A DNA stretch of 64,000 bases, taken from assembly GCA_004558825.1 (NCBI GenBank), contig SFDB01000001.1, positions 137,427 through 201,426 on the forward strand. The letters run 5' to 3'. Below, piece by piece: positions 4,782 to 58,110 of this stretch. Origin of the DNA: Clostridiales bacterium (GTDB taxonomy: Bacteria > Bacillota > Clostridia > Christensenellales > CAG-138). How positions within the stretch are numbered: position 1 is the first letter of the stretch; each line of letters begins with the position of its first letter. The notes beneath the pieces are model-generated. The model had not been told where the DNA came from, made no database searches, and was given only the letters and a program-made list of their open reading frames with translations. The position numbers and the translations under genes were made by a program.

Positions 4782-6408
4782 AAATACATTTGCAAGGCTT
4801 ATCGCGTCGCTGCTCATTGCATCCGCGCTCATCGGCTGCATTGGATGCGCCGCAGACCGTTCGGGCGCCGAGCCGACGGCAACGCCGCTCCTTATGCCCA
4901 CCCCTACCCCGCAGATACAGCCCGTACCCGGCGGCGAACTCATAATGCCCATACCCGCCAACGCCGAAGCTCACAACCCGCTCACCGTTTCAAACAGGGA
5001 AATGCTTAACATGTATTCGCTCATATTCGAGGGGCTTGTTTATCTTGACGAAAGTGGAATACTTGCGCCGATGCTCGCGGAAAACTGGTCGTGCGACGAA
5101 ACGGGGCGCGTGTGGACTTTTAACATTCGCCGGGGCGTCAAATGGCACAGACTTGCCTCCGAGCTTACAGCCGATGACATAATTTATACCGTCAATATAA
5201 TCAAAAATATGGACGGCGGATCGTACTACAGCTATAACGTATCAAAAATAGAAAGCATCGAAAAAGCAGACGCATACACCGTCCGCATGACGATGACGCA
5301 CGCCGGCATAAGCCCCGTTACGCTTTTAACTTTCCCGATAATATGCGCGCAAAGCAGCATGGACGATATGCCCGTCGGTACCGGCCCCTACGCGATAACC
5401 TCACAAAGCGGAGACACTATAACGCTTGAAGCCAATAAGCTTTGGTGGAAACAGACGCCGTATCTTGAGAGGATAACGCTAAAGGAGCGTGACAACACCG
5501 AGAGCGAGCTTGCTTCCTTTGCGGCGGGACAGCTTAACATGGTTTTCACATCGGTGCTGCACGCAGGACGCTATCGCGACGAAGGCAAAACAAGCGTTAT
5601 CGATATAATGACGCAGACTATGGAAACGCTTCTTATAAACCATTCATCGACCATACTTGCTTCGCAGGATGTCCGCAAGGCGCTCGCCTACGGGATAGAC
5701 AGAAGCGACATAATTTCAAACGTCTACATGAATAAAGCCGTCGCATGCGACGTACCGATAGCGCCCGACTCCTACGCATACGATTCCAAATACAAAAAGT
5801 ACGACTTTAACCGTTCGTATGCACTGTCGCTGCTGTCGCATCTTGGCTGGGAAGACGTAGACGACGACGGCATACTTGAAAACAAAGCCGCGCAGTCTGC
5901 CGAGCTCAAGCTCAAGCTCCTCGTAAGCACGTCGGCCGACAACACGCTCCGTGCCGATGCGGCAAAGAGGATTGCGGCGCAGCTTCTCGAAATGGGCATA
6001 GAGGTTGAGATAAAAGAAGTGCCGTTCGCCACGGAGGCGGCGGACGATGAGGACTTTATATCGCTCCTCGCGGACGGGGACTTCGACCTCGCGCTTGCCG
6101 GGTTCAATCTCGGGCGTGATCTCGACCTGACGCAGTATGTCTCGTCGCTCGGTGCGCTCAATTACGGCAAGTACTACGGCGTCAAGCTCGACGCGCTTGC
6201 AAAGGATCTCGCTCAGGCGGCCGACCAGACGGCGGCGCGCGATGCGGCGGCTCTGTTTCAGGAGGAATTTATCGATTCGCTCCCGTTCATAGTGCTTTAT
6301 TTCAGGCAGAGCAGCGTAATCTATTCTTCTAAAATCAAGGGTGTTTCCTCGCTCCGAGAGCCTGACGTCATGCTCAACGCATATAAATGGTATACAAATT
6401 GGAAGTAA
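4771..6408 (+). CDS. ABC transporter substrate-binding lipoprotein, family 5 (peptide/nickel type), orphan
   Basis: Signal peptide with lipobox (LIASALIGC), Pro/Thr linker, then a family-5 SBP-like body (..MLNMYSLIFEGLVYLDESG..LAENW..). The start overlaps the coaE stop by 11 nt. No permease or ATPase gene is adjacent. Confidence 0.85.
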   Translation: MMNKNTFARLIASLLIASALIGCIGCAADRSGAEPTATPLLMPTPTPQIQPVPGGELIMPIPANAEAHNPLTVSNREMLNMYSLIFEGLVYLDESGILAPMLAENWSCDETGRVWTFNIRRGVKWHRLASELTADDIIYTVNIIKNMDGGSYYSYNVSKIESIEKADAYTVRMTMTHAGISPVTLLTFPIICAQSSMDDMPVGTGPYAITSQSGDTITLEANKLWWKQTPYLERITLKERDNTESELASFAAGQLNMVFTSVLHAGRYRDEGKTSVIDIMTQTMETLLINHSSTILASQDVRKALAYGIDRSDIISNVYMNKAVACDVPIAPDSYAYDSKYKKYDFNRSYALSLLSHLGWEDVDDDGILENKAAQSAELKLKLLVSTSADNTLRADAAKRIAAQLLEMGIEVEIKEVPFATEAADDEDFISLLADGDFDLALAGFNLGRDLDLTQYVSSLGALNYGKYYGVKLDALAKDLAQAADQTAARDAAALFQEEFIDSLPFIVLYFRQSSVIYSSKIKGVSSLREPDVMLNAYKWYTNWK

Positions 6409-28089: not shown

Positions 28090-29793
28090 GTGAAATTTAA
28101 TGATATGCCGTATTCACGGCCAAACGTCGACGATATCTGTGCAAAGCTCGGCGCGCTTTCGGAGCGCATGAAAAATGCCGCGACCTTCGATGAAGCCAAT
28201 GATATTTTCGTTGAGTATGAGCAGCTTAACACAGAAGTCGATACCATGTTCTCGCTCGCGTATGTAAGGCATTCGATTGACACCGAGGATAAATTTTACG
28301 ATGCCGAGGCCGAATTTATGGATGAGGCGTCGCCCGTTATCACCGAGCCTGCGCAGGCATTTAAGCTTGCATTGCTCAGCTCTCCCTTCCGGAAACAATT
28401 TGAAGAGCGCTACGGCGACCTCATGTTCAAAAACATCGAGATATCGCTTAAATCCTTCTCGCCCGAGATTATTCCCGAGCTTCAGGAGGAAAACAAGCTC
28501 GTCACCGAATACGACAAGCTCATCGCTTCAGCGCAGATACCCTACGAAGGCGGCGTATACACTCTCTCGCAGCTCACCCCGTATATGCAGGTCACAGACG
28601 ACGAAAAGCGTCTTGCCGCATGGAAGGCAAACGGCTCATTCTTCACCGAAAACGCACAGAAGCTGGACGAAATATACGACAAGCTCACGCACCTTCGCGA
28701 TACTATGGGTAAAAAGCTCGGCTATGACGGCTATACGCAGCTCGGCTATTACCGCATGAACCGCAACAGCTATACGGCGCAGGATGTGTGCAGATTCCGC
28801 GAGGCCGTTAAGAAGTATATAGTCCCCGTCGCCGACAGGCTCTACAGAGAGCAGGCCGTGCGCATAGGGGCGAAATATCCGATGAACCACTCCGACATGG
28901 CGCTGACATTCAGAAGCGGTAACCCCGTCCCGAAGGGAACGCCCGAGGAGATACTCGCGCACGGAAAGCGGTTTTATCATGAGCTTTCGCCTGAAACCGC
29001 GGGATTCATTGACTTTATGTACGACAACGAGCTTCTCGACGTGCTAAGCCGCAAAGGCAAGCAGGGCGGCGGCTACTGCACAAGTTTTCCCAAATACAAG
29101 GCCCCGTTCATATTCGCCAACTTCAACGGCACTCAGCATGACGTAGAAGTCATAACACATGAAGCCGGCCATGCATTCGCAGGCTACATCGCAAGGGATG
29201 TATTCCCGCTTGAAAACCAGAGTCCGACGCTTGAAAGCTGTGAAATACATTCCATGAGCATGGAATTCTTCGCGTGGCCGTGGGCGGAGGGATGGTTCAG
29301 GGACGATACGACAAAGTTCTATTACAACCATCTTTCTGGCGCAATTACGTTCATACCGTACGGCACAATGGTAGACCATTTCCAGCATATCGTATACGAA
29401 AAGCCCGACATGACGCCCGCGCAGCGCCATGAAGCATGGCAGGCGCTTATGAAGGAATACATGCCTTGGGTACGGTGCGACAGCGGTATACCGTTCTACG
29501 GCGAGGGCAAAAACTGGCAGCGGCAATCGCATATCTATGAGACGCCGTTCTACTACATCGACTACTGCCTTGCGCAGACCGTCGCGCTTCAGTTCTGGGC
29601 TCTCATGCAAAAAGACAGAGACGACGCCTGGAGGCGCTACATGGCGCTCGTAACGAACGCCGGCAAAAAGACTTTCGACGGACTTGTGGCTTCAGCAGGT
29701 CTTGCGACGCCATTCGGCGACACAGCGCTTAAAGAAGTGGCCGACGCCGCAGTCAAGTGGCTCGATAGCGTTGACATGAGCAAAATCAAGTAA
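28090..29793 (+). CDS. M3-family oligoendopeptidase
   Basis: 567 aa. Zinc motif HEAGHAF with a downstream Glu (..CEIHSMSMEF..). GTG start with GGAGGA RBS. Confidence 0.9.
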   Translation: MKFNDMPYSRPNVDDICAKLGALSERMKNAATFDEANDIFVEYEQLNTEVDTMFSLAYVRHSIDTEDKFYDAEAEFMDEASPVITEPAQAFKLALLSSPFRKQFEERYGDLMFKNIEISLKSFSPEIIPELQEENKLVTEYDKLIASAQIPYEGGVYTLSQLTPYMQVTDDEKRLAAWKANGSFFTENAQKLDEIYDKLTHLRDTMGKKLGYDGYTQLGYYRMNRNSYTAQDVCRFREAVKKYIVPVADRLYREQAVRIGAKYPMNHSDMALTFRSGNPVPKGTPEEILAHGKRFYHELSPETAGFIDFMYDNELLDVLSRKGKQGGGYCTSFPKYKAPFIFANFNGTQHDVEVITHEAGHAFAGYIARDVFPLENQSPTLESCEIHSMSMEFFAWPWAEGWFRDDTTKFYYNHLSGAITFIPYGTMVDHFQHIVYEKPDMTPAQRHEAWQALMKEYMPWVRCDSGIPFYGEGKNWQRQSHIYETPFYYIDYCLAQTVALQFWALMQKDRDDAWRRYMALVTNAGKKTFDGLVASAGLATPFGDTALKEVADAAVKWLDSVDMSKIK

Positions 29794-29845
29794 AAGTGCT
29801 ATCTGACGAATCATGCGAAAGGCCGCCGCAATCGGCGGCCTGAGA

Positions 29846-30037
29846 CTGTCGAAAAAGTGGCTAAACGCCACTTTTTCGAGTTTTTACGGGTTTCGCCTCT
29901 CGCATTCGCTCCCGGGCGGCAAAACCCGCAAAGTACGAAAACCTCCGGGTTTTCATCCGTTCTTACGCACATGCCGTCAGAGCCGGATTCAACATAAGGG
30001 GCTGTGGCCCCTTAACAGCCCCGGAGTTTTTCGACAG
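29846..30037. repeat. 192-bp structured intergenic element, copy A (perfect 11-bp terminal inverted repeats; MITE-like)
   Basis: CTGTCGAAAAA (29846-56) and TTTTTCGACAG (30027-37). Left-end 12-bp hairpin CGAAAAAGTGGC/GCCACTTTTTCG. A 39-nt core (29895-29933) is identical to 56771-56809. Further hairpins GAAAACC/GGTTTTC and AAGGGGC/GCCCCTT. Confidence 0.8.
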
Positions 30038-30063
30038 CCCCGTCCGTATTGACGATTATTCGT

Positions 30064-31827
30064 TTACTTGTTGAGTGCAAGACGCTCGAACTCGTCTACG
30101 CGCTCTTCATATGAGCGCAGGCTCATACGCCAAAACTCCTTATCTGTCAGGTCGATTCCCGCTATCTTTGCCGTGTCCTCAACGCTGTTTACAGTAGTTG
30201 CCTTGAGCAGCTCCTTATACTTTGATATAAACGAAGCGCCTTCGTTTACATATTTGGTATAAAGCCCTCTTGCGAACAGGCCGCCAAACGCATATGGGAA
30301 GTTGTAGAAGCTTGTGCCGCTGCTGTAATAGTGCGACTTGCAAAGCCACATGTAAGGATGCCTAAACTCCCTGTCAAGTCCGTCGCCATATGCCTCGTCC
30401 TGCGCCTTGAGCATCATCTCGCACAAAGTATCGGGGAACATGAACGATTCTTCGCGGTTCGCAAACACCTGCGTTTCAAAATAATAGCGAGAATAGATGT
30501 CGCATATTATCTGCGTCGTGTCCATGAGCTGGCCCTCTATAAGCGCAAGCTTTTCCTGCGGGTCGGCAGCGTTTTTTATGGCGGCGTCCATTATCACATG
30601 CTCATTGAATGTCGACGCGGTCTCGGCGACGGGCATTGAGTAGTCACGGTTAAGCGGCCTGTGGCTTTCGATATTGAGATTGTGGAAAGCATGGCCGAGC
30701 TCATGCGCAAGCGTAACGACGTCGCTGAACGAGCCGTCGAAATTTGTCAGCACACGGCTTTGACCATATGATGGCAGGCCTAAGCAGAAGGCCCCTCCTA
30801 CCTTGCCCTCATGCGGGTAAAAATCAATCCAGCTCTCATTGAACGCCCTTTCGACCATATCATGGAGTTCCTTATCGAAATTGCCGAATATATTGAGCAG
30901 ATAGTCGCGCGCCTCTTCGGTCGTATAAGTTTTATCGCACTTACCCATCGGCGCAAAAAGATCGTACCACGGCAAACCGTTTTCGTGTCCGAGCGCTTTT
31001 GCCTTAATCTTTAGATAGCGGCGGAAAAGCGGCATATATTCATGCATCGCCTCCATAAGCGCGTCAAGCGTTTCGCGCTTCATGCGCGCGTCTTGCAGCG
31101 TCTTGTCGAGCGGCGAAGCGTAACCGCGCAGCCTGCTTTCGTTTATAACTTGGAGCTTAATGCTGTTAAGCGACGCGGCAACCGAGTCTTTTATCTTGTC
31201 ATAGCATGCAAGCTCTGCTTCGTATGCTTCGCGTCTCACAGCGGGATCGGGGTCGTACGCCTTATTGCGTATTGACGACAGGTTTAGTTTTTCTCCCCTG
31301 AAATCAGCCGTCACAGACGATGTTAGCGAGCTTTGCAGATCGCTCCACGCACTGCCGCCGCTTATGTCGTAAAGCGCCATTATTTCTTCGGCTTCCTCGC
31401 TCAAGAGATATTTGTTATCCTTGACTATGTTATTAAGCAGATACTCGTAACTCTTTAGCAGCTCATCTCCGGCGATAAGCTCGTCAAGGTTTTCCGTTGA
31501 AGCGATGTACTTACGGAACGATGTCGTTGCCTTTGTCGTAGCGCTCATTTTAGCCATAAGCTGACCCATGTACGACGCCGCCTGCGCGTCGCGCGTGTTC
31601 ACGCTCATATTGAGGTTGCAAAACGCACCAAGGCCAAAGGCAAGCTCGTTAAAGTTCTCGTTGAGTGCAAGATAGTCATGTATCGCTTGAGCGGGGGACA
31701 TCTTCTCCTTTGAATCGGACAGCTCGTTCAGGCGCTTTATCAGGCCGTCGACGGCTTCCATATCAGCTTTGAATTTTGGATCGTCATATCCGTGATACAA
31801 AAAATCAAGAGACCATTCTTTGTTCAT
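30064..31827 (-). CDS. pepF: Oligoendopeptidase F (M3B family)
   Basis: Zinc motif HELGHAFH, about 590 aa. Start at MNKEWSL (GGAGGA RBS); the track start is 18 nt further upstream. Confidence 0.9.
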   Translation of the reverse strand: MNKEWSLDFLYHGYDDPKFKADMEAVDGLIKRLNELSDSKEKMSPAQAIHDYLALNENFNELAFGLGAFCNLNMSVNTRDAQAASYMGQLMAKMSATTKATTSFRKYIASTENLDELIAGDELLKSYEYLLNNIVKDNKYLLSEEAEEIMALYDISGGSAWSDLQSSLTSSVTADFRGEKLNLSSIRNKAYDPDPAVRREAYEAELACYDKIKDSVAASLNSIKLQVINESRLRGYASPLDKTLQDARMKRETLDALMEAMHEYMPLFRRYLKIKAKALGHENGLPWYDLFAPMGKCDKTYTTEEARDYLLNIFGNFDKELHDMVERAFNESWIDFYPHEGKVGGAFCLGLPSYGQSRVLTNFDGSFSDVVTLAHELGHAFHNLNIESHRPLNRDYSMPVAETASTFNEHVIMDAAIKNAADPQEKLALIEGQLMDTTQIICDIYSRYYFETQVFANREESFMFPDTLCEMMLKAQDEAYGDGLDREFRHPYMWLCKSHYYSSGTSFYNFPYAFGGLFARGLYTKYVNEGASFISKYKELLKATTVNSVEDTAKIAGIDLTDKEFWRMSLRSYEERVDEFERLALNK

Positions 31828-32020
31828 TTTATTCCTCCGTTGCAAAAAGCAATTTATTGGCTATATTATATCAAATCACCTTTCCCCTGTCCACACACCC
31901 GAGCACAAGTTTTCGGCAAAATCGGCTGAGCACGCCCGACGCGCAGCACTCTCTGCCGCTTCTTAATCAAAAGCTGCGTGCGCGGGTGCAAAAAGACTTC
32001 GAAAATCATATTCTGTAATC

Positions 32021-36651: not shown

Positions 36652-37779
36652 TTATCTTTTCCTGTGCTTCGGAGCGACTATGACGCGCCTGTTAGGCTCC
36701 TCGCCCTCGCTGTGCGTCGTAACGTATGGATTGCCCTGGAGCGCCGAATGCATAACCCTGCGCTCATACGGATTCATGGGCTCAAGCGCGCGCTGTCTGC
36801 CTGTCGCCTTGACCTGCGCGGCAACCTTGCGTGCAAGGCGGATTAACGTCTCCTCCCGCTTGCACCTGTAGCCCTCCGTATCAACCATAACTCGCTTATA
36901 GCCGTCCTCTTTACGGTTCTTGTTCACATACAGCGAAGCAAGATACTGTATCGCATCGAGCGTCTCTCCCCTGCGGCCGATAAGCACACCCTGCGTTTTG
37001 CCGTCTATGCGCATCATCACCTCGTCGTCGTTCGAGCAGGCAAGCACGTCTGCTTCTATGCCCATATGTCTGACAAGGTCGAGCACGAACTGTGCTCCGG
37101 GCTCGTTTTGCGCAGCTTCCTTCGTATAGTCGATACTCTCGTTGTTGCGCATCAGCTTAAGCTCCTGCCGCTCCCTGCGCCGCGCTCTTACAGGGCGCTC
37201 ACGCTCTTCACCGCTCATCACCTGCTCTGCATCTCCGCTCGGCTCCGCTGCGTTTATCTCAACAGGCGTCGGCACCTTTTCTGCAACAGCACCGGCGTTT
37301 TCCGCTTTAAGCGCGGTCACATCGTTTTCAGGCTCTTCCGTTTTCTTCGGTGCCTCGGGCGATTCGCATCTGTCGCGTTTGAAGCCGTCCTTTGTTTTCT
37401 CGGCACGCGCGGGCCTTTCTCTGCGTTCCTGTATTTCGGGCCTTTCGCATTTGTCCCCGCGCTCGGGGCGTTCGGGCTTTTCTCGCCTGTCGCGCCTTTC
37501 GCCTCTGTCGCCGCTGCGCTCGCGCCTGTCGCGCTGTCTTCCTGCGTCGCCTCTGTCTCGGCGCGCAAGTTCCTTGAAGTCGGGGACTACGACATCCTCG
37601 GGCTCCTTCTGTGTAAGGCGCACCTTTGCGGGCTTCGCGCCTATGCCGAGTATGCCGCTCGTCTCATGCTGCAATACCTCTATTGTTACCTCGTCTATCG
37701 AAATTTCAAGCTGCTTCAAGCCGTTAAATACAGCAGCATCAACGGACTTGCCTGTTGCCTCTATTGTCTTTAGCGTCAT
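36652..37779 (-). CDS. jag: Jag/KhpB (EloR) RNA-binding protein with expanded Arg/Glu/Asp-rich linker
   Basis: Jag_N (MTLKTIEATGKSVDAAV..), then a C-terminal KH (..GVLIGRRGETLDAIQYL..) and R3H (..LEPMNPYERRVMHSAL..). An approximately 150-aa RDRRE/ERPE repeat linker lies between them. Overlaps the yidC stop. Confidence 0.9.
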   Translation of the reverse strand: MTLKTIEATGKSVDAAVFNGLKQLEISIDEVTIEVLQHETSGILGIGAKPAKVRLTQKEPEDVVVPDFKELARRDRGDAGRQRDRRERSGDRGERRDRREKPERPERGDKCERPEIQERRERPARAEKTKDGFKRDRCESPEAPKKTEEPENDVTALKAENAGAVAEKVPTPVEINAAEPSGDAEQVMSGEERERPVRARRRERQELKLMRNNESIDYTKEAAQNEPGAQFVLDLVRHMGIEADVLACSNDDEVMMRIDGKTQGVLIGRRGETLDAIQYLASLYVNKNRKEDGYKRVMVDTEGYRCKREETLIRLARKVAAQVKATGRQRALEPMNPYERRVMHSALQGNPYVTTHSEGEEPNRRVIVAPKHRKR

Positions 37780-40006: not shown

Positions 40007-40177
40007 ATGGCATACGTAATCAATGACACCTGCATTTGCTGCGGCGCTTGCGCTGCCGAATGCCCCGTCGGCGCTATCAGCGAAGGCGATGGCCGCTTTG
40101 TCATCGATCCCGACACTTGCATCGAATGCGGCGCTTGCGCAGGCACATGCCCCGTCGGCGCACCGAACGCTCAGTAA
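40007..40177 (+). CDS. fdx: 2x[4Fe-4S] clostridial-type ferredoxin
   Basis: Not in the ORF track (56 aa): MAYVINDTCICCGACAAECPVGAISEGDGRFVIDPDTCIECGACAGTCPVGAPNAQ*. Two CxxCxxCxxxCP motifs. GGAGG RBS. Confidence 0.93.
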   Translation: MAYVINDTCICCGACAAECPVGAISEGDGRFVIDPDTCIECGACAGTCPVGAPNAQ

Positions 40178-53878: not shown

Positions 53879-55219
53879 ATGAGAAGCTATGTTCCCAACA
53901 CCGAGGGGGAACGTAAGGAAATGCTGTCATCCATGGGGCTCAGCTCCATGGATGAGCTGTTCCGCGACATACCCGACGAGCTTAAGCTCTCAAGGCCGCT
54001 CAATTTGCCCGAAGGCAAGAGCGAAACTGAGATTCGCCGCATATTCCGCGCTTACGCGGAGCGTACAAACGGCTCAATGCCTCTTTTCCGCGGCGCGGGC
54101 GCTTACAGGCATTATATTCCTTCGCTTATCCCTCAGCTTTTGATGCGTTCGGAGTTCTACACGGCATATACGCCCTATCAGGCCGAAATGAGTCAGGGTA
54201 TGCTTCAGGCGATATTTGAGTATCAGACGCTCATGTGCCGCCTCACGGGCATGGACGTTTCAAACGCTTCCGTTTACGATGGCGCGACGGCCGCAGCCGA
54301 AGCAATGCTCATGCTCCGCGACGCAAAGCGCAAGCAGAAAATACTCATAAGCGACGGCCTTAATCCCGACGTCATCGCAGTAATACACACATATGCGCGC
54401 TTTGCCCGCCTTGAGTGCGTATCGATACCGCTCAATTCCGACGGAACGACCGACATGGACGCGCTCTCCGCCAATTCGGACGGCGCAGCGGGTTACATAG
54501 TCGCCAACCCGAACTTCTTCGGCTGTCTCGAAAACATGGACGAAATATCCGCCGCCGTTCACGGCTTCGGCGGACTGCTCGTAAGCTATGTCAACCCCAT
54601 ATCGCTCTCGCTCGTAAAGCGTCCCGGCGACTATGGCGCCGATATAGCCGTCGGCGATGCGCAGCCCCTCGGCCTGCCGCTCAGTTTCGGCGGCCCGTAC
54701 TGCGGCTTCATGTGCTCCACGCAGAAGCTCATAAGAAACCTGCCCGGCAGAATCGCGGGACAGACGAGCGACGCGGAGGGTAACCGCGTATTCGTTCTCA
54801 CGCTTCAGGCGCGCGAGCAGCATATACGCCGTGAAAAGGCTTCATCGAACATCTGCTCTAACCAGATGCTCTGCGCGATAACCGCAAGCATGTACCTGAG
54901 CGTCATGGGACCCGAAGGCATGTACGAGGTTGCAATGCAGAACCTTCAGAAGGCGCATTATCTCCGCGATGGCATAAAGAGCATAAACGGCGCGCGTATT
55001 CGCTACGAAAACACGCCGTTCTTCAACGAGTTTGTAGTCGAATTCGACAAAGATTCCGCCGTTATCAACGCACTGCTCAAAAAGAAGGGCATAGTAGGCG
55101 GCGCGCGCCTTGCCAATTATAAAGACGGCGACAACGGCATTCTCATGTGCGTCACCGAAATGAACACGCGCGAAGAGATTGATGCGCTTATCACGGCATT
55201 GGAGGAGATCACAAAATGA
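53879..55219 (+). CDS. gcvPA: Glycine dehydrogenase (decarboxylating) subunit 1
   Basis: 446 aa. ..[30 protein letters not shown].. is the P-protein alpha pattern. Confidence 0.95.
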
Positions 55220-56661
55220 GAAGCGAATACCCTCTTATATTCGAACGTTCAAAACCCGGCCGCAGAGGCTATGACCTCCCCAAGCTTGATGTGCCCGAGC
55301 TCGACGGACTCATACCTGAGCAGATGCTCAACAAGGAGCCGTTGAAGCTTCCCGAGATAGCCGAGGTCGACCTTGTAAGGCATTACACGAATCTTTCAAA
55401 GCGCAATTTCGGCGTCGACAACGGTTTTTACCCGCTCGGCTCATGCACAATGAAGTATAACCCGAAAATCAACGAGGAAATGCCTGCGCTCTTTAACGAC
55501 CTGCATCCGCTGCTCGACCAGGATATGGCGCAGGGCGCTATAGACATGATGCTCGATCTCGACCGCGCGCTCTGCGAAATAACAGGCATGGACAAGTTCA
55601 CGCTCCAGCCCTCAGCAGGCGCTCACGGCGAATACACGGGACTCATGATAATCAAGGCGTATCACGATATGCGGCAGGATTACGGGCGCAACGTAATGAT
55701 AGTCCCCGATGCGGCGCACGGCACCAACCCCGCATCGGCGGCAATGGCGGGTTATAAAATACGCGAAATAAAATCCGCCCCTGATGGCAGCGTAGACCTC
55801 GACGCGCTTAGAGCTGCGGTCGGCAATGACACAGCGGGTCTCATGCTCACGAACCCCTCGACGCTCGGTCTGTTTGAGCGCAATATAAAGGAAATCGCCG
55901 ATATCGTTCACGAAGCCGGCGGCCTCCTCTATTACGACGGCGCAAACCTCAACGCCATAATGGGCATAGTGCGTCCCGGAGACATGGGCTTTGACTGTAT
56001 GCACATCAATCTCCATAAGACGTTCTCAACTCCTCACGGCGGCGGCGGTCCCGGCTCGGGTCCTGTCGGCGTAAAGAAGGAGCTTATACCTTATCTGCCC
56101 TACCCCGTTGTTATGGGCCATTGCGGCGGCGCGGCAACGCTTGATTACGACCGTCCGCTGTCCATAGGCAAGGTCAAGAGCCTTTACGGAAACTTTGGCG
56201 TTCTTGTTAAAGCATATGCGTACATACTCTCGCTCGGCGGCAAAGGGCTTAAGGAAGCAAGCGAAAACGCTGTGCTCAACGCTAATTATGTGTTTAACCG
56301 CCTTAAGGGCGCATACGGCGTGCCGCATGACAGGATTTGTATGCACGAATGCGTCATAGAGCCTGGTGAGCTCCTCGAAAAAGGCGTGCATACTACGGAC
56401 ATAGCAAAGGCGCTCATCGATCGCGGCTACCACCCGATGACCATCTACTTCCCGCTCATCGTTCACGAAGCCATGATGATCGAACCTACAGAGACGGAAA
56501 GCAGGGAGACGCTCGACGCCTTTGTTGACGCAATGCTTGACATAGCCCGCGTAGCTAAGGAAGATCCCGAATCGCTCCATAAAGCGCCCGTGACAACGCC
56601 CGTCGGAAGACCCGACGAGGTTGCTGCGGCAAGAAAGCCCGTCGTAAAATACGAGGACTGA
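55216..56661 (+). CDS. gcvPB: Glycine dehydrogenase (decarboxylating) subunit 2
   Basis: 481 aa. ..[13 protein letters not shown].. and the PLP-Lys region ..[18 protein letters not shown]... 4-nt overlap with gcvPA. Confidence 0.95.
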
Positions 56662-56690: not shown

Positions 56691-56720
56691 AAATACGGCG
56701 CCTCAAGGCGCCGTATTTGA
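56691..56720 (+). terminator. Terminator after gcvPB
   Basis: AAATACGGCGCC, loop TCAA, GGCGCCGTATTT, then TGA. A perfect 12-bp stem. Confidence 0.8.
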
Positions 56721-56912
56721 GTGTCTAAAAAGTGGCATACTGCCACTTTTTCGAGTTTTTCTCGTGCTTTGCCTCTCGCATTCGCTCCCGGGCGGCAAAA
56801 CCCGCAAAGCACGAAAACCTATGGGGTTTCATACGTTTTGACGCACATGTCGTCAAAGCCGGAATTAACTTAATGTGCTGCAGCCCCTTAACAACCCCGT
56901 TTTTTTCGCAAG
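56721..56912. repeat. 192-bp structured intergenic element, copy B (decayed termini)
   Basis: Collinear with 29846-30037. The 39-nt core 56771-56809 is identical to copy A. The left hairpin AAAAAGTGGC/GCCACTTTTT is retained with a different loop, and the termini differ from copy A at 2 positions each. It fills the gap between the gcvPB terminator and the sigF stop. Confidence 0.75.
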
Positions 56913-56918
56913 CGGATG

Positions 56919-57677
56919 CTAACCCGCAGTCTGCGTATCGCTTTGCGCGGTTTCACGCATTTTTTTCAGTATCTTGCTTTCAAGGCGCGATACCTGCACC
57001 TGTGAAACGCCAATTATCTGAGCCGTCTGGCACTGCGTCTTGCCGCCAAAGAACCTCAGCATAATTATCTGCCTCTCTCTCGGCTCAAGCACGCGGAGCA
57101 GCTCCTTTAGCAGAAGCTTGTTGACGACCTCGCATTCCTCATCTTCATCGCTCGCAACCCTGTCGGCCACGCAGGCATCGGCGTCGTCCGCATAGATGGG
57201 TTCATATATCGACGTATGCGGACGCACGGCATCGAGCGCCATGACTATCTCTTCAGGCTCGCGCGAAAGCTCCTTCGCTATCTCCATTATACCGACATCG
57301 CCGCCCGACGCCATGCTGAGCCGCTCCTTTGCCGCCATTGCCTGCGACGCAAGCTCCTTTAATGAACGGCTCACCTTTATCATGCCATCGTCGCGCAAAA
57401 AGCGTTTTACCTCGCCCGCTATCATTGGCACCGCGTACGTCGAAAAGCGTACGCCAAACGATTCATCGTAATTGCGCACGGCTTTTATGAGCCCGACGCA
57501 GCCTATTTGGAAAAGGTCGTCATATTCAGTGCCGCGGTTCAGATATTTTTTGACTATCGATTTTACGAGCGCGATATTGTGCTCTACGAGTATATCCTGC
57601 GCCTGCGAATCGCCAAGCTTTACCCGTTTTAACAGCCGCAGCGCCTCTTCGTGCTCGAGCGGCGCTCTGTCAATCAT
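56919..57677 (-). CDS. sigF: RNA polymerase sporulation sigma factor SigF
   Basis: Third gene of the spoIIA operon. ..NIALVKSIVKKYLNRGTEYDDLFQIGCVGLIKAVRNYD.. and the region 4 HTH ..QTAQIIGVSQVQVSRLE... Start at MIDRAP (57677). Confidence 0.93.
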   Translation of the reverse strand: MIDRAPLEHEEALRLLKRVKLGDSQAQDILVEHNIALVKSIVKKYLNRGTEYDDLFQIGCVGLIKAVRNYDESFGVRFSTYAVPMIAGEVKRFLRDDGMIKVSRSLKELASQAMAAKERLSMASGGDVGIMEIAKELSREPEEIVMALDAVRPHTSIYEPIYADDADACVADRVASDEDEECEVVNKLLLKELLRVLEPRERQIIMLRFFGGKTQCQTAQIIGVSQVQVSRLESKILKKMRETAQSDTQTAG

Positions 57678-58110
57678 TTTCCTCCACCCGCGCAGATATA
57701 TGCTTTCGCATTGTGACACAGGTGCCTTTACCCACCTCGGACTCGACATCTACACGATCCATGAATGCTTCCATCACCGCAAAACCCATCCCGGATCTGT
57801 CCATTCCTGCCGCCGACGTGTAAAACGGCTGACGTGCAAGCTCCACATCCTCTATTCCCCTGCCTTCGTCGCGTATCGATATCGTTATGCCCTCATCGTC
57901 ACTCGAACAATCCATATATATCGTTCCGCCTCTATTTTCATAGCCATGAATTATGCAGTTCGTAACGGCCTCGCTGACCGCCGTACGTATATCCGTGAGC
58001 TCATCTATCGTAGGATTGAGCTGCGCGGCAAACGCTGCCGCTATCATTCGCGCAAGGCTTTCGTTTTGCGATATCGATAGAAAACTCGTATGCAATTCGT
58101 TCTTATACAT
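57670..58110 (-). CDS. spoIIAB: Anti-sigma F factor (serine kinase) SpoIIAB
   Basis: MYKNELHTSFLSISQNESLARM..AVTNCIIHGY..DEGRGI..SGMGFAVM are GHKL kinase motifs. Start at 58110 (GGGGG RBS). Confidence 0.93.
   Translation of the reverse strand: MYKNELHTSFLSISQNESLARMIAAAFAAQLNPTIDELTDIRTAVSEAVTNCIIHGYENRGGTIYMDCSSDDEGITISIRDEGRGIEDVELARQPFYTSAAGMDRSGMGFAVMEAFMDRVDVESEVGKGTCVTMRKHISARVEEND

Follow-up and report, generated by a model that had tools for sequence, protein, structure and literature searches.

A short, probably non-autonomous element of gut Clostridia that inserts at intrinsic-terminator hairpins and duplicates the whole stem-loop

The 64,000-nucleotide stretch of Clostridiales bacterium DNA analysed here (contig SFDB01000001.1; the whole stretch is referred to as the window) contains two related intergenic repeats, copy A and copy B. 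Based on our observations, we consider it probable that these repeats are relics of a non-autonomous DNA transposon of about 200 bp without coding capacity, a MITE (miniature inverted-repeat transposable element), which is active, or was until recently, in gut Clostridia of the Christensenellales/Eubacteriales type, and which targets hairpins and duplicates them. The element integrates at the hairpin of an intrinsic terminator, entering between the stem and the T-tract, and leaves a copy of the whole stem-loop on each side. The target is chosen by its shape, not by its sequence. A preliminary description of the window had read the repeat as MITE-like and had noticed a preference for sites just behind terminators; both suggestions are borne out by dispersed copies, sharp inverted-repeat ends, target-site duplications and five pairs of occupied and empty sites. 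Most of the features by which a MITE is recognized are present: small size, lack of coding capacity, terminal inverted repeats, target-site duplication and dispersed, polymorphic copies; a cognate autonomous insertion sequence with the same terminal repeats, as the expected source of the transposase, was not found in about 1.5 Mb of fetched loci. The duplication itself is atypical for a MITE, as it comprises a whole hairpin and varies in length.

Terminator hairpins as targets of a mobile family

Mobility of the family is shown by the comparison of occupied with empty sites. An empty site was predicted from each site bearing a duplication and then searched for in the fetched loci, and five independent pairs were recovered (L098/L127, L110/L021, L127 with L091 and L060, L159/L193 and L193/L160). 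The empty site is an uninterrupted single hairpin in another strain, with 97.5-99% identity, and the occupied site has the order hairpin, CAGAG..GACTG, hairpin. This is presence/absence insertion and not an ordinary conserved 3' untranslated region (UTR), one of the outcomes that the preliminary description had named as refuting it; none of the others listed there was found either.

All fetched loci together represent 122 distinct insertion sites. A direct duplication abuts the element at 68 of them, measuring 17-30 bp and mostly 21-26 bp, and every one of these 68 duplications folds as a hairpin with a stem of at least 5 bp (mean dG -15 kcal/mol). At 62 of the 68 sites the stem base is 0-1 nt from the 5' end of the duplication, and at 64 it is as close to the 3' end, so that duplication length follows hairpin size. 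At locus L077, for example, AGACGGCATAAACTGCCGTCT stands before CAGAG and again after GACTG, with a T-tract behind the second copy only. Orientation is only mildly biased over the 68 sites: a downstream T-tract alone is present at 23, an upstream A-tract alone at 12, both at 13 and neither at 20.

What mechanism could duplicate a stem-loop of variable size? We propose that a transposase supplied in trans, probably of the DDE type, would bind the 20-bp terminal repeats, and that the target would be captured as an extruded hairpin or cruciform, whose stem feet would be adjacent at any stem length. On each strand, the element's 3' end would then be joined at the 5' foot of the stem-loop, and filling of the gap by repair synthesis would leave the stem-loop duplicated. 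On B-form DNA, a stagger varying from 17 to 30 bp would shift the transfer sites both in distance and in face, and it is from this that we infer capture of a hairpin or cruciform. IS1272/TnSha1, an insertion sequence (IS) of the IS1182 family in staphylococci, targets terminator hairpins by structure and not by sequence; it attacks the other stem feet and deletes the hairpin (PMC4923244, PMC5678879). The duplicating branch is drawn as an alternative in the IS1272 model (Wan et al. 2017, Fig. 13, path b; PMC5678879). We tentatively suggest a mode of transposition that measures its target by shape instead of distance, the enzyme joining at both hairpin feet and the duplication being the stem-loop itself, 17-30 bp long. 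With the same reserve, this mode could be regarded as the duplicating counterpart of IS1272 stem-loop replacement, a counterpart that we found in the literature only as a hypothetical model branch. The transposase at work could come from a group for which no link to hairpin targeting has yet been made. As the first hairpin copy loses its T-tract, termination is probably restored by the element's own hairpins, which are terminator-like in both directions and would replace the interrupted host terminator in either orientation. With termination replaced, insertion would be nearly neutral and terminators would be a low-cost landing site.

Several loci display further variation at the hairpins. Identical stems with different loops flank the element at L075, L079 (2975-3235), L037 (5831-6031) and L148, the loop pairs including AAA and TTT, an exact loop inversion, and CGAACG and CATCAG. 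At L021 (3131-3395), element, hairpin and element stand in tandem with one hairpin common to both, which suggests that a duplicated hairpin can itself be retargeted. On metagenome contigs L109, L202, L125, L149 and L148 the flanking hairpins are unlike, and the same flanks recur in differing combinations between contigs; such reshuffling could come from recombination between dispersed copies or from assembler mis-joins over the 190-bp repeat.

The family is widely dispersed, a point for which the preliminary description had proposed a copy-number search. A scan of a collection with one genome per species, with the 20-nt loop TCTCGCATTCGCTCCCGGGC from the element's core as query, returned 72 loci, 66 of them true copies, in eight metagenome-assembled genomes (MAGs) of Clostridia. 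The Clostridiales MAGs W2P7.006, W0P13.014 and W0P31.004 hold about 25, 20 and 11 loci, and the remainder lie in MAG152, a Hadza gut MAG, Christensenella sp. UBA1685 and two others; six matches in Planctomycetota, Anaeromyxobacteraceae and Promineifilum contigs have no BLAST similarity to the element. No locus came from the window's own species, though both window copies hold the exact 20-mer (within 29901-29929 and 56777-56805); either the species is unrepresented in the collection or its representative lacks these stretches. BLAST with copy A recovered 56 full-length copies of 85-99% identity, nearly all running from query position 1-4 to 186-192, which defines sharp ends. The terminal repeat used as a metagenome query detected at least 120 loci, most of the named records being human-gut assemblies. 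Public genomes and gut metagenomes together yield well over 100 copies, and the organism of the window, an uncultured 'Eubacteriales bacterium', recurs across many metagenome assemblies.

Intact copies run from CAGAGTGTCRAAAAAGTGGC to TTTTTYGACAGACTG, the right-hand repeat being a shorter version; they start with CAGAGTGTCRAAAAA at the left terminus, follow the layout CAGAG-TGTC...GACA-GACTG and have a modal core length of 189-193 bp. Internal-deletion derivatives of 100-150 bp retain both ends and the duplication. Units of 45 bp consist of two 20-bp terminal repeats around a loop, and none of the three examined has a hairpin duplication. A type-2 sister subfamily carries a different central module. 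Deletion derivatives, 45-bp units and sister subfamilies all fit a cut-down transposon that needs its ends only. BLAST of the element against plasmids gave no match and, against phages, one related element on a gut phage contig, with hairpin copies on both sides whose loops differ; a scan of viral contigs gave one real copy and three chance matches. The 45-nt terminal-repeat palindrome, searched against plasmids, returned 21-nt matches (E = 8) in a Klebsiella ISNCY transposase gene, which are at chance level and were not used.

Two structural variants deserve mention. Swapped outer pentamers, CAGTC...CTCTG instead of CAGAG...GACTG, occur at L069, L059 (5604-5804), L053, L064, L037 (5831-6031) and L048, all from MAG W0P13.014, as if the core had been inverted between the terminal repeats. 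The idea that the swap tracks terminator direction was rejected on a by-eye check of the T-tracts; the swap marks a single subfamily of one MAG. An extra insert of about 45 nt (CCTCCAGGGGGCCTTCTCT.GCCCCTGCGGGGCAA.TCACCT) is present at two independent loci, L009 (74-198 and downstream) and L128 (- strand, from 3895, a 285-bp variant), in the loop of the GACGCACATGTCGTC hairpin of the element; a second element, also small, may nest in hairpins of the first.

The window copies and the internal structure of the element

A search of the whole 64 kb with the family profile identified exactly two copies. Their positions and those of the neighbouring features are as follows.

28090..29793, + strand: M3-family oligoendopeptidase gene, upstream of copy A
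29821..29840, + strand: terminator hairpin of the host, GGCCGCCG caat CGGCGGCC, belonging to the M3 peptidase gene; target of copy A, T-tract lost to the element
29842..30036, + strand: copy A, consisting of pentamer GAGAC (29842-29846) and core TGTC...GACA (29847-30036) by the family definition; nhmmer E = 1e-67
30027..30036, + strand: right terminal repeat of copy A, TTTTTCGACA, from sequence and family alignment
30064..31845, - strand: oligoendopeptidase F-like gene, convergent on copy A
55216..56661, + strand: glycine dehydrogenase subunit 2 gene, upstream of copy B
56693..56716, + strand: terminator hairpin of the host, ATACGGCGCC tcaa GGCGCCGTAT, behind the glycine-cleavage P-protein subunit gene; target of copy B
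56717..56912, + strand: copy B, with pentamer TTGAG, core from 56722 and a degenerate right end (TTTTTTTCGCAAG); nhmmer E = 5e-58
56919..57749, - strand: sigma-70-family factor gene, convergent on copy B

Both copies are intergenic, with convergent genes on either side, and both lie directly behind a G+C-rich gene-end hairpin. They are relics: the left junction at the 3' foot of the host hairpin is kept, and the right pentamer and the second hairpin are lost. Copy A lacks the outer pentamer on the right and has no second hairpin copy; copy B has no hairpin duplication and its terminal repeats are only about 7/11 complementary. Copies A and B now probably serve only as the 3'-end terminator region of the genes upstream.

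Much of the preliminary description of the two copies holds. The perfect 11-bp terminal inverted repeats of copy A are CTGTCGAAAAA at 29846-29856 and TTTTTCGACAG at 30027-30037; the left 12-bp hairpin, CGAAAAAGTGGC / TAAAC / GCCACTTTTTCG, occupies 29850-29878, and the further hairpins GAAAACC/GGTTTTC and AAGGGGC/GCCCCTT occupy 29937-29954 and 29996-30013. The second copy, at 56721-56912, is 84% identical to copy A (29846-30037) across the aligned stretch and shares with it an identical 39-nt core (29895-29933 and 56771-56809), of which a 29-nt piece occurs twice in the window with 0 occurrences expected by chance. The termini are sharp, and in intact copies the true ends lie 4-5 nt further out than the 192-bp limits given to the element. 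Both copies do start 5 nt past a gene-end hairpin, as described for copy A, but those 5 nt (GAGAC and TTGAG) belong to the element and are the outer pentamer of the family's 20-bp terminal repeat. The 39-nt core emphasized in that description is confined to one subfamily.

Copy A is polymorphic, being absent in two of the six places shown, with a flanking peptidase gene that is 100% identical. The two loci without it, L001 and L002, have the same hairpin intact, followed by TTTCGTT and then by an unrelated insert of about 480 bp. The terminator of the oligoendopeptidase F-like gene, present in L001, is missing its left hairpin arm in the window. Copy B was found in eight of eight strains sampled, with constant intergenic length. 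The insert that occupies L001 4755-5235, the site equivalent to window 29842-30040, is G+C-rich, its A+T-rich centre being flanked by a pair of direct repeats, each about 130 bp long (a 30-nt probe has matches at 4794-4823 and 5093-5122); it has no further occurrence in the window or in the other fetched loci.

Copy A folds far more stably than its shuffled counterparts (z of -6.1 for the + strand and -8.0 for the - strand), and folding is weaker in copy B (z about -3). A structure alignment of 82 distinct copies revealed five helices with 47 pairs, in which 97.3% of the cells are paired. Their positions in copy A, all given on the + strand, are these.

29849..29885, + strand: helix 1, the left-end hairpin, reading terminal repeat, GTGGC, loop, GCCAC, inverted repeat copy, then GTTTTT; 11 pairs, 3 compensatory
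29887..29928, + strand: helix 2, CGGGTTTCGCC / GGCAAAACCCG, enclosing the 20-nt loop used as core query; 11 pairs, 5 compensatory
29937..29954, + strand: helix 3, GAAAACC / GGTTTTC, from folding and alignment
29957..29987, + strand: helix 4 region, CCGTTCTTACGCACATGCCGTCAGAGCCGG, with a central palindrome RCATGY kept in all subfamilies
29996..30013, + strand: helix 5, AAGGGGC tgtg GCCCCTT, terminator-like on the - strand of intact copies

Compensatory changes are seen in 15 pairs, compared with 5.8 +/- 1.3 in column shuffles (0 of 500 reach 15) and 3-8 in slid controls, so that the stems, for which the preliminary description had proposed a covariation check, are backed by covariation. At the pair that closes the left hairpin, 43 copies have A-U and 34 have G-C; columns 128-146, in the helix 4 region, show C-G in 70 copies against U-A in 11, and columns 161-183 show A-U in 58 against U-A in 21. 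Helix 2 holds most of the 39-nt core and is a module of one subfamily, replaced in type-2 copies and in the phage copy, which retains CGCACATGTCG of the helix 4 region. The left repeat, its inner arm and the right repeat co-vary (G/A at repeat position 10 and a GGAAAA/TTTTCC variant), and such co-change of the terminal repeats is expected if one transposase must fit both ends.

The signals for termination and transcription are distributed over both strands. The left hairpin with GTTTTT scores as a + strand intrinsic terminator in both window copies, and the GGGGC hairpin with ATGTTTAAT scores as a - strand terminator in one intact copy. The only promoter-like site is an inward TTGATA-16-TATGTT on the - strand of intact copies, with 9/12 matches and with helix 5 falling in its spacer; the promoter scan reported it in neither window copy. 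G.U/U.G wobbles far outnumber A.C/C.A cells on the + strand, and a wobble bias on one strand with a promoter-like site on the other makes the evidence for a defined transcript incoherent. Rfam 15 gave no match at gathering score anywhere in the window, and at E <= 10 only chance-level matches, all below 20 bits. Pfam matched no family on the open reading frames (ORFs) drawn across copies A and B, which the preliminary description notes to be in different frames, and a short - strand ORF (MREAK...) was dropped as coding because, in our own reading of the sequence, it is frame-shifted between A and B.

Other features of the window were noted as well. The operon of the sigma factor has a spoIIA-type arrangement, its upstream genes matching HATPase_c and STAS domains. 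In window 37427-37555 a 36-nt unit rich in C, T and G (TCGCGCC-TGTCGC-like) is directly repeated in five imperfect copies that overlap, show 67-75% identity to the reference copy and have some start-to-start spacings of 9 nt. A pair of 50-nt direct repeats of 82% identity lies at 40025-40161, the two being 87 nt apart.

Search for a partner and competing explanations

The search for an autonomous partner covered about 1.5 Mb of fetched loci and disclosed neither an autonomous copy nor a cognate transposase. Orphan terminal repeats and repeat pairs 0.3-6 kb apart, taken over all loci, gave no autonomous element; each long 'pair' turned out to be one MITE whose right end was a variant, with host genes behind it. 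No partner emerged from the sequence behind each terminal repeat in 120 metagenome loci, nor from clustering of multi-copy ORFs. ORFs near the mini-elements (UvrB/UvrC-like, for example) are none of them transposase-like, as judged by N-terminal sequence and not by domain scan. Contig L065, bounded by two inverted copies, was discarded as its cargo reads as a phosphoenolpyruvate carboxykinase gene. The absence of a transposase from the window, stated in the preliminary description, was checked on the flanking ORFs only. A transposase of the IS1202 type (TnsB-like) was not found near copies. By eye, the left end of IS1272 on plasmid pAMT2, the one IS1182-family member compared, has no similarity to the terminal repeats of the element, and a tblastn search with the IS1272 transposase matched none of the fetched loci, which sample the host genomes partly.

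A remnant with an rve domain beside the left end of the element (L155, L119 and L171) was also rejected as a partner. It belongs to an IS481-family IS with terminal repeats of its own, TTGTAGG...TTGGACAG, and is for that reason unrelated and nested in or adjoining a copy. Such IS481-family sequences (rve and rve_3) adjoin or lie inside copies at L155 (- strand, 2377 onward), L119, L171, L205 (100-1170) and L204. At L205, 6 nt past the right end of the IS, a sequence resembles the right end of the element (GTTTCGACAGCC).

How well does a hairpin-duplicating MITE account for all of the data? Several observations weigh against it. No partner was found, and the enzyme class and the cruciform step consequently rest on inference. 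There are 54 sites among the 122 without a clean duplication, and at 25 of these the hairpins to the left and right are unlike; to explain this, one must invoke secondary recombination or assembly chimeras, either of which could be the cause. Some duplications have hairpin copies whose differences lie mainly in the loop, which simple gap repair does not predict. The window copies themselves have no duplication. Finally, the conservation of the internal helices exceeds what a transposon substrate recognized by its terminal repeats would need, and may point to a function as RNA or single-stranded DNA (ssDNA).

This last point leads to the possibility that the repeat is mainly a small-RNA gene or the mobile carrier of one, a small-RNA family being among the alternatives of the preliminary description, with a promoter at the right end, a structured - strand RNA of about 150 nt ending at the left hairpin and a U-tract, and helices kept for the sake of RNA function. 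Five helices with compensatory changes, the inward promoter-like site in intact copies, a left hairpin followed by T5-6 on the - strand and the z score of the - strand fold of copy A are what such a gene would be expected to display. However, nothing in Rfam resembles it even at E <= 10, the wobble excess favours folding of the strand opposite the promoter-like site, that site is an incomplete match and was reported in neither window copy, and sister subfamilies that still transpose lack the central module or have another in its place. We regard this explanation as unlikely; an RNA function would in any case be compatible with mobility, which is shown. The idea that the window copies are conserved 3'-UTR or terminator modules, duplicated within the genome and immobile, draws on their lack of a target-site duplication, on the presence of copy B in every strain sampled and on a left hairpin that scores as a terminator. 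It is scarcely credible given copies of 85-93% identity at unrelated loci in at least eight other MAGs, with sharp ends, duplications and empty sites, and given the absence of copy A from its site in some strains of the same species; at the level of the family, the empty sites refute it.

Might a different kind of enzyme move the element? A structure-specific integrase outside the DDE group, either Cas1-like (casposase) or a tyrosine recombinase acting on folded hairpins in the style of integron integrases, would suit a target recognized by shape, the failure to find a DDE partner and the duplication of a whole palindromic unit around the insert, formally as by Cas1-Cas2 at a CRISPR repeat. 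The duplications vary from 17 to 30 bp, whereas those of casposons are fixed in length, and tyrosine recombinases are not known to make a long duplication. Neither cas1 nor an integrase gene was seen beside copies by multi-copy-ORF clustering and ORF inspection at a few loci, with no domain scan, and 20-bp terminal inverted repeats and 45-bp repeat-only units are typical of DDE transposons; we therefore hold such an enzyme to be quite improbable. Still less probable, and indeed very doubtful, is a palindrome of the repetitive extragenic palindromic (REP)/REPIN type or derived from IS200/IS605, moved as ssDNA by an HUH (Y1) transposase. The left end does resemble a REP palindrome of about 35 nt, and the element is hairpin-rich, intergenic and known in very short, palindrome-only versions. 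Yet terminal inverted repeats are present and empty sites prove the duplication, whereas HUH/Y1 elements are not known to have either; no tnpA, RAYT or tnpB was seen near copies by the same ORF clustering and inspection of a few loci, again with no domain scan. The duplications contradict the REP-like alternative of the preliminary description. REP/REPINs are defined by the lack of a duplication and by association with a RAYT gene that the palindromes flank. Together with the terminal inverted repeats and the structure-defined target, the duplications also set the element apart from IS200/IS605-derived palindrome-associated transposable elements (PATEs), which have subterminal hairpins and insert 3' of a short conserved motif.

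Known systems and biological implications

A MITE that duplicates terminator hairpins has its closest parallel in IS1272, with which it has in common a hairpin target recognized by structure, insertion at the stem base and use of both orientations. IS1272 replaces the hairpin without a duplication, whereas here the hairpin is kept and duplicated; and IS1272 is an autonomous IS of about 1.9 kb, in contrast to a non-coding element of about 200 bp. The direct repeats given in ISfinder for the IS1182 family range from 0 to 60 bp. Siguier et al. (2015), as cited in both IS1272 papers, mention IS1182-family members that target palindromes, the citing passages giving no details (PMC4923244, PMC5678879). 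Given this mention and the ISfinder range, specialists may know related cases.

The IS1202 subgroup has duplications of 16-28 bp, a target that is not known and ends of the form TGT...ACA, and the hairpin content of its duplications is not reported (PMC10132070). It resembles the present element in the length of the duplications (17-30 bp here), in having no target consensus and in TGT...ACA near the ends (here TGTC...GACA). The junctions here are CAG...CTG, however, with TGTC...GACA 5 nt inside, so that TGT...ACA does not form the outer ends as it does in that subgroup.

Classical MITEs make short duplications of fixed length, such as TA for Correia. In other respects Correia/NEMIS, ERIC, RUP, BOX and Chunjie are similar to the present element, being small, non-coding, intergenic and present in many copies with terminal inverted repeats, strong secondary structure, internal-deletion variants and possible promoter or terminator signals (PMC10969869). 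The same 2024 review of prokaryotic MITEs mentions none in which an entire terminator hairpin is duplicated or the length of the duplication follows a target structure (PMC10969869), and our full-text literature search found no documented case of a MITE or IS that duplicates terminator hairpins in a way matched to their structure. SPRITE is likewise a dispersed small repeat linked to terminator-like hairpins, but it itself resembles a terminator and is not described as inserting into or duplicating host terminators.

Recognition of the terminator stem-loop by structure is shared with class C group II introns, which home just downstream of intrinsic-terminator stem-loops. These introns are reverse-transcriptase-encoding retroelements about 2 kb in length and are not known to have terminal inverted repeats or to duplicate the hairpin. 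Cas1-Cas2, by staggered attack on both borders of a CRISPR repeat, a unit that is often palindromic, duplicates it around the insert, and casposon duplications are fixed at 14-15 bp. Both give a duplication of constant length and depend on the leader or target sequence, in contrast to a duplication that varies with the hairpin and to loci with no cas1 in evidence; casposon integration by Cas1 served for this comparison (PMC5137440).

What are the implications of such a family? With a rigid transpososome acting on B-form DNA, a duplication that tracks the hairpin is difficult to explain; it argues for capture of a hairpin or cruciform. The 68 natural events, together with the empty sites, constitute a direct data set on which to test the IS1272 model, and possibly one from which to explain the long duplications of the IS1202 and IS1182 groups. 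On the practical side, the copies break metagenome assemblies, can pass for small-RNA genes or ORFs in annotation, create tandem terminators and may seed rearrangements. Intrinsic terminators follow most operons and are defined by structure. An element that recognizes them by shape, and makes good the damage with a duplicated hairpin and terminators of its own, would have a nearly neutral landing site across the genome. A safe site recognized by its shape may explain the success of the element in gut Clostridia.

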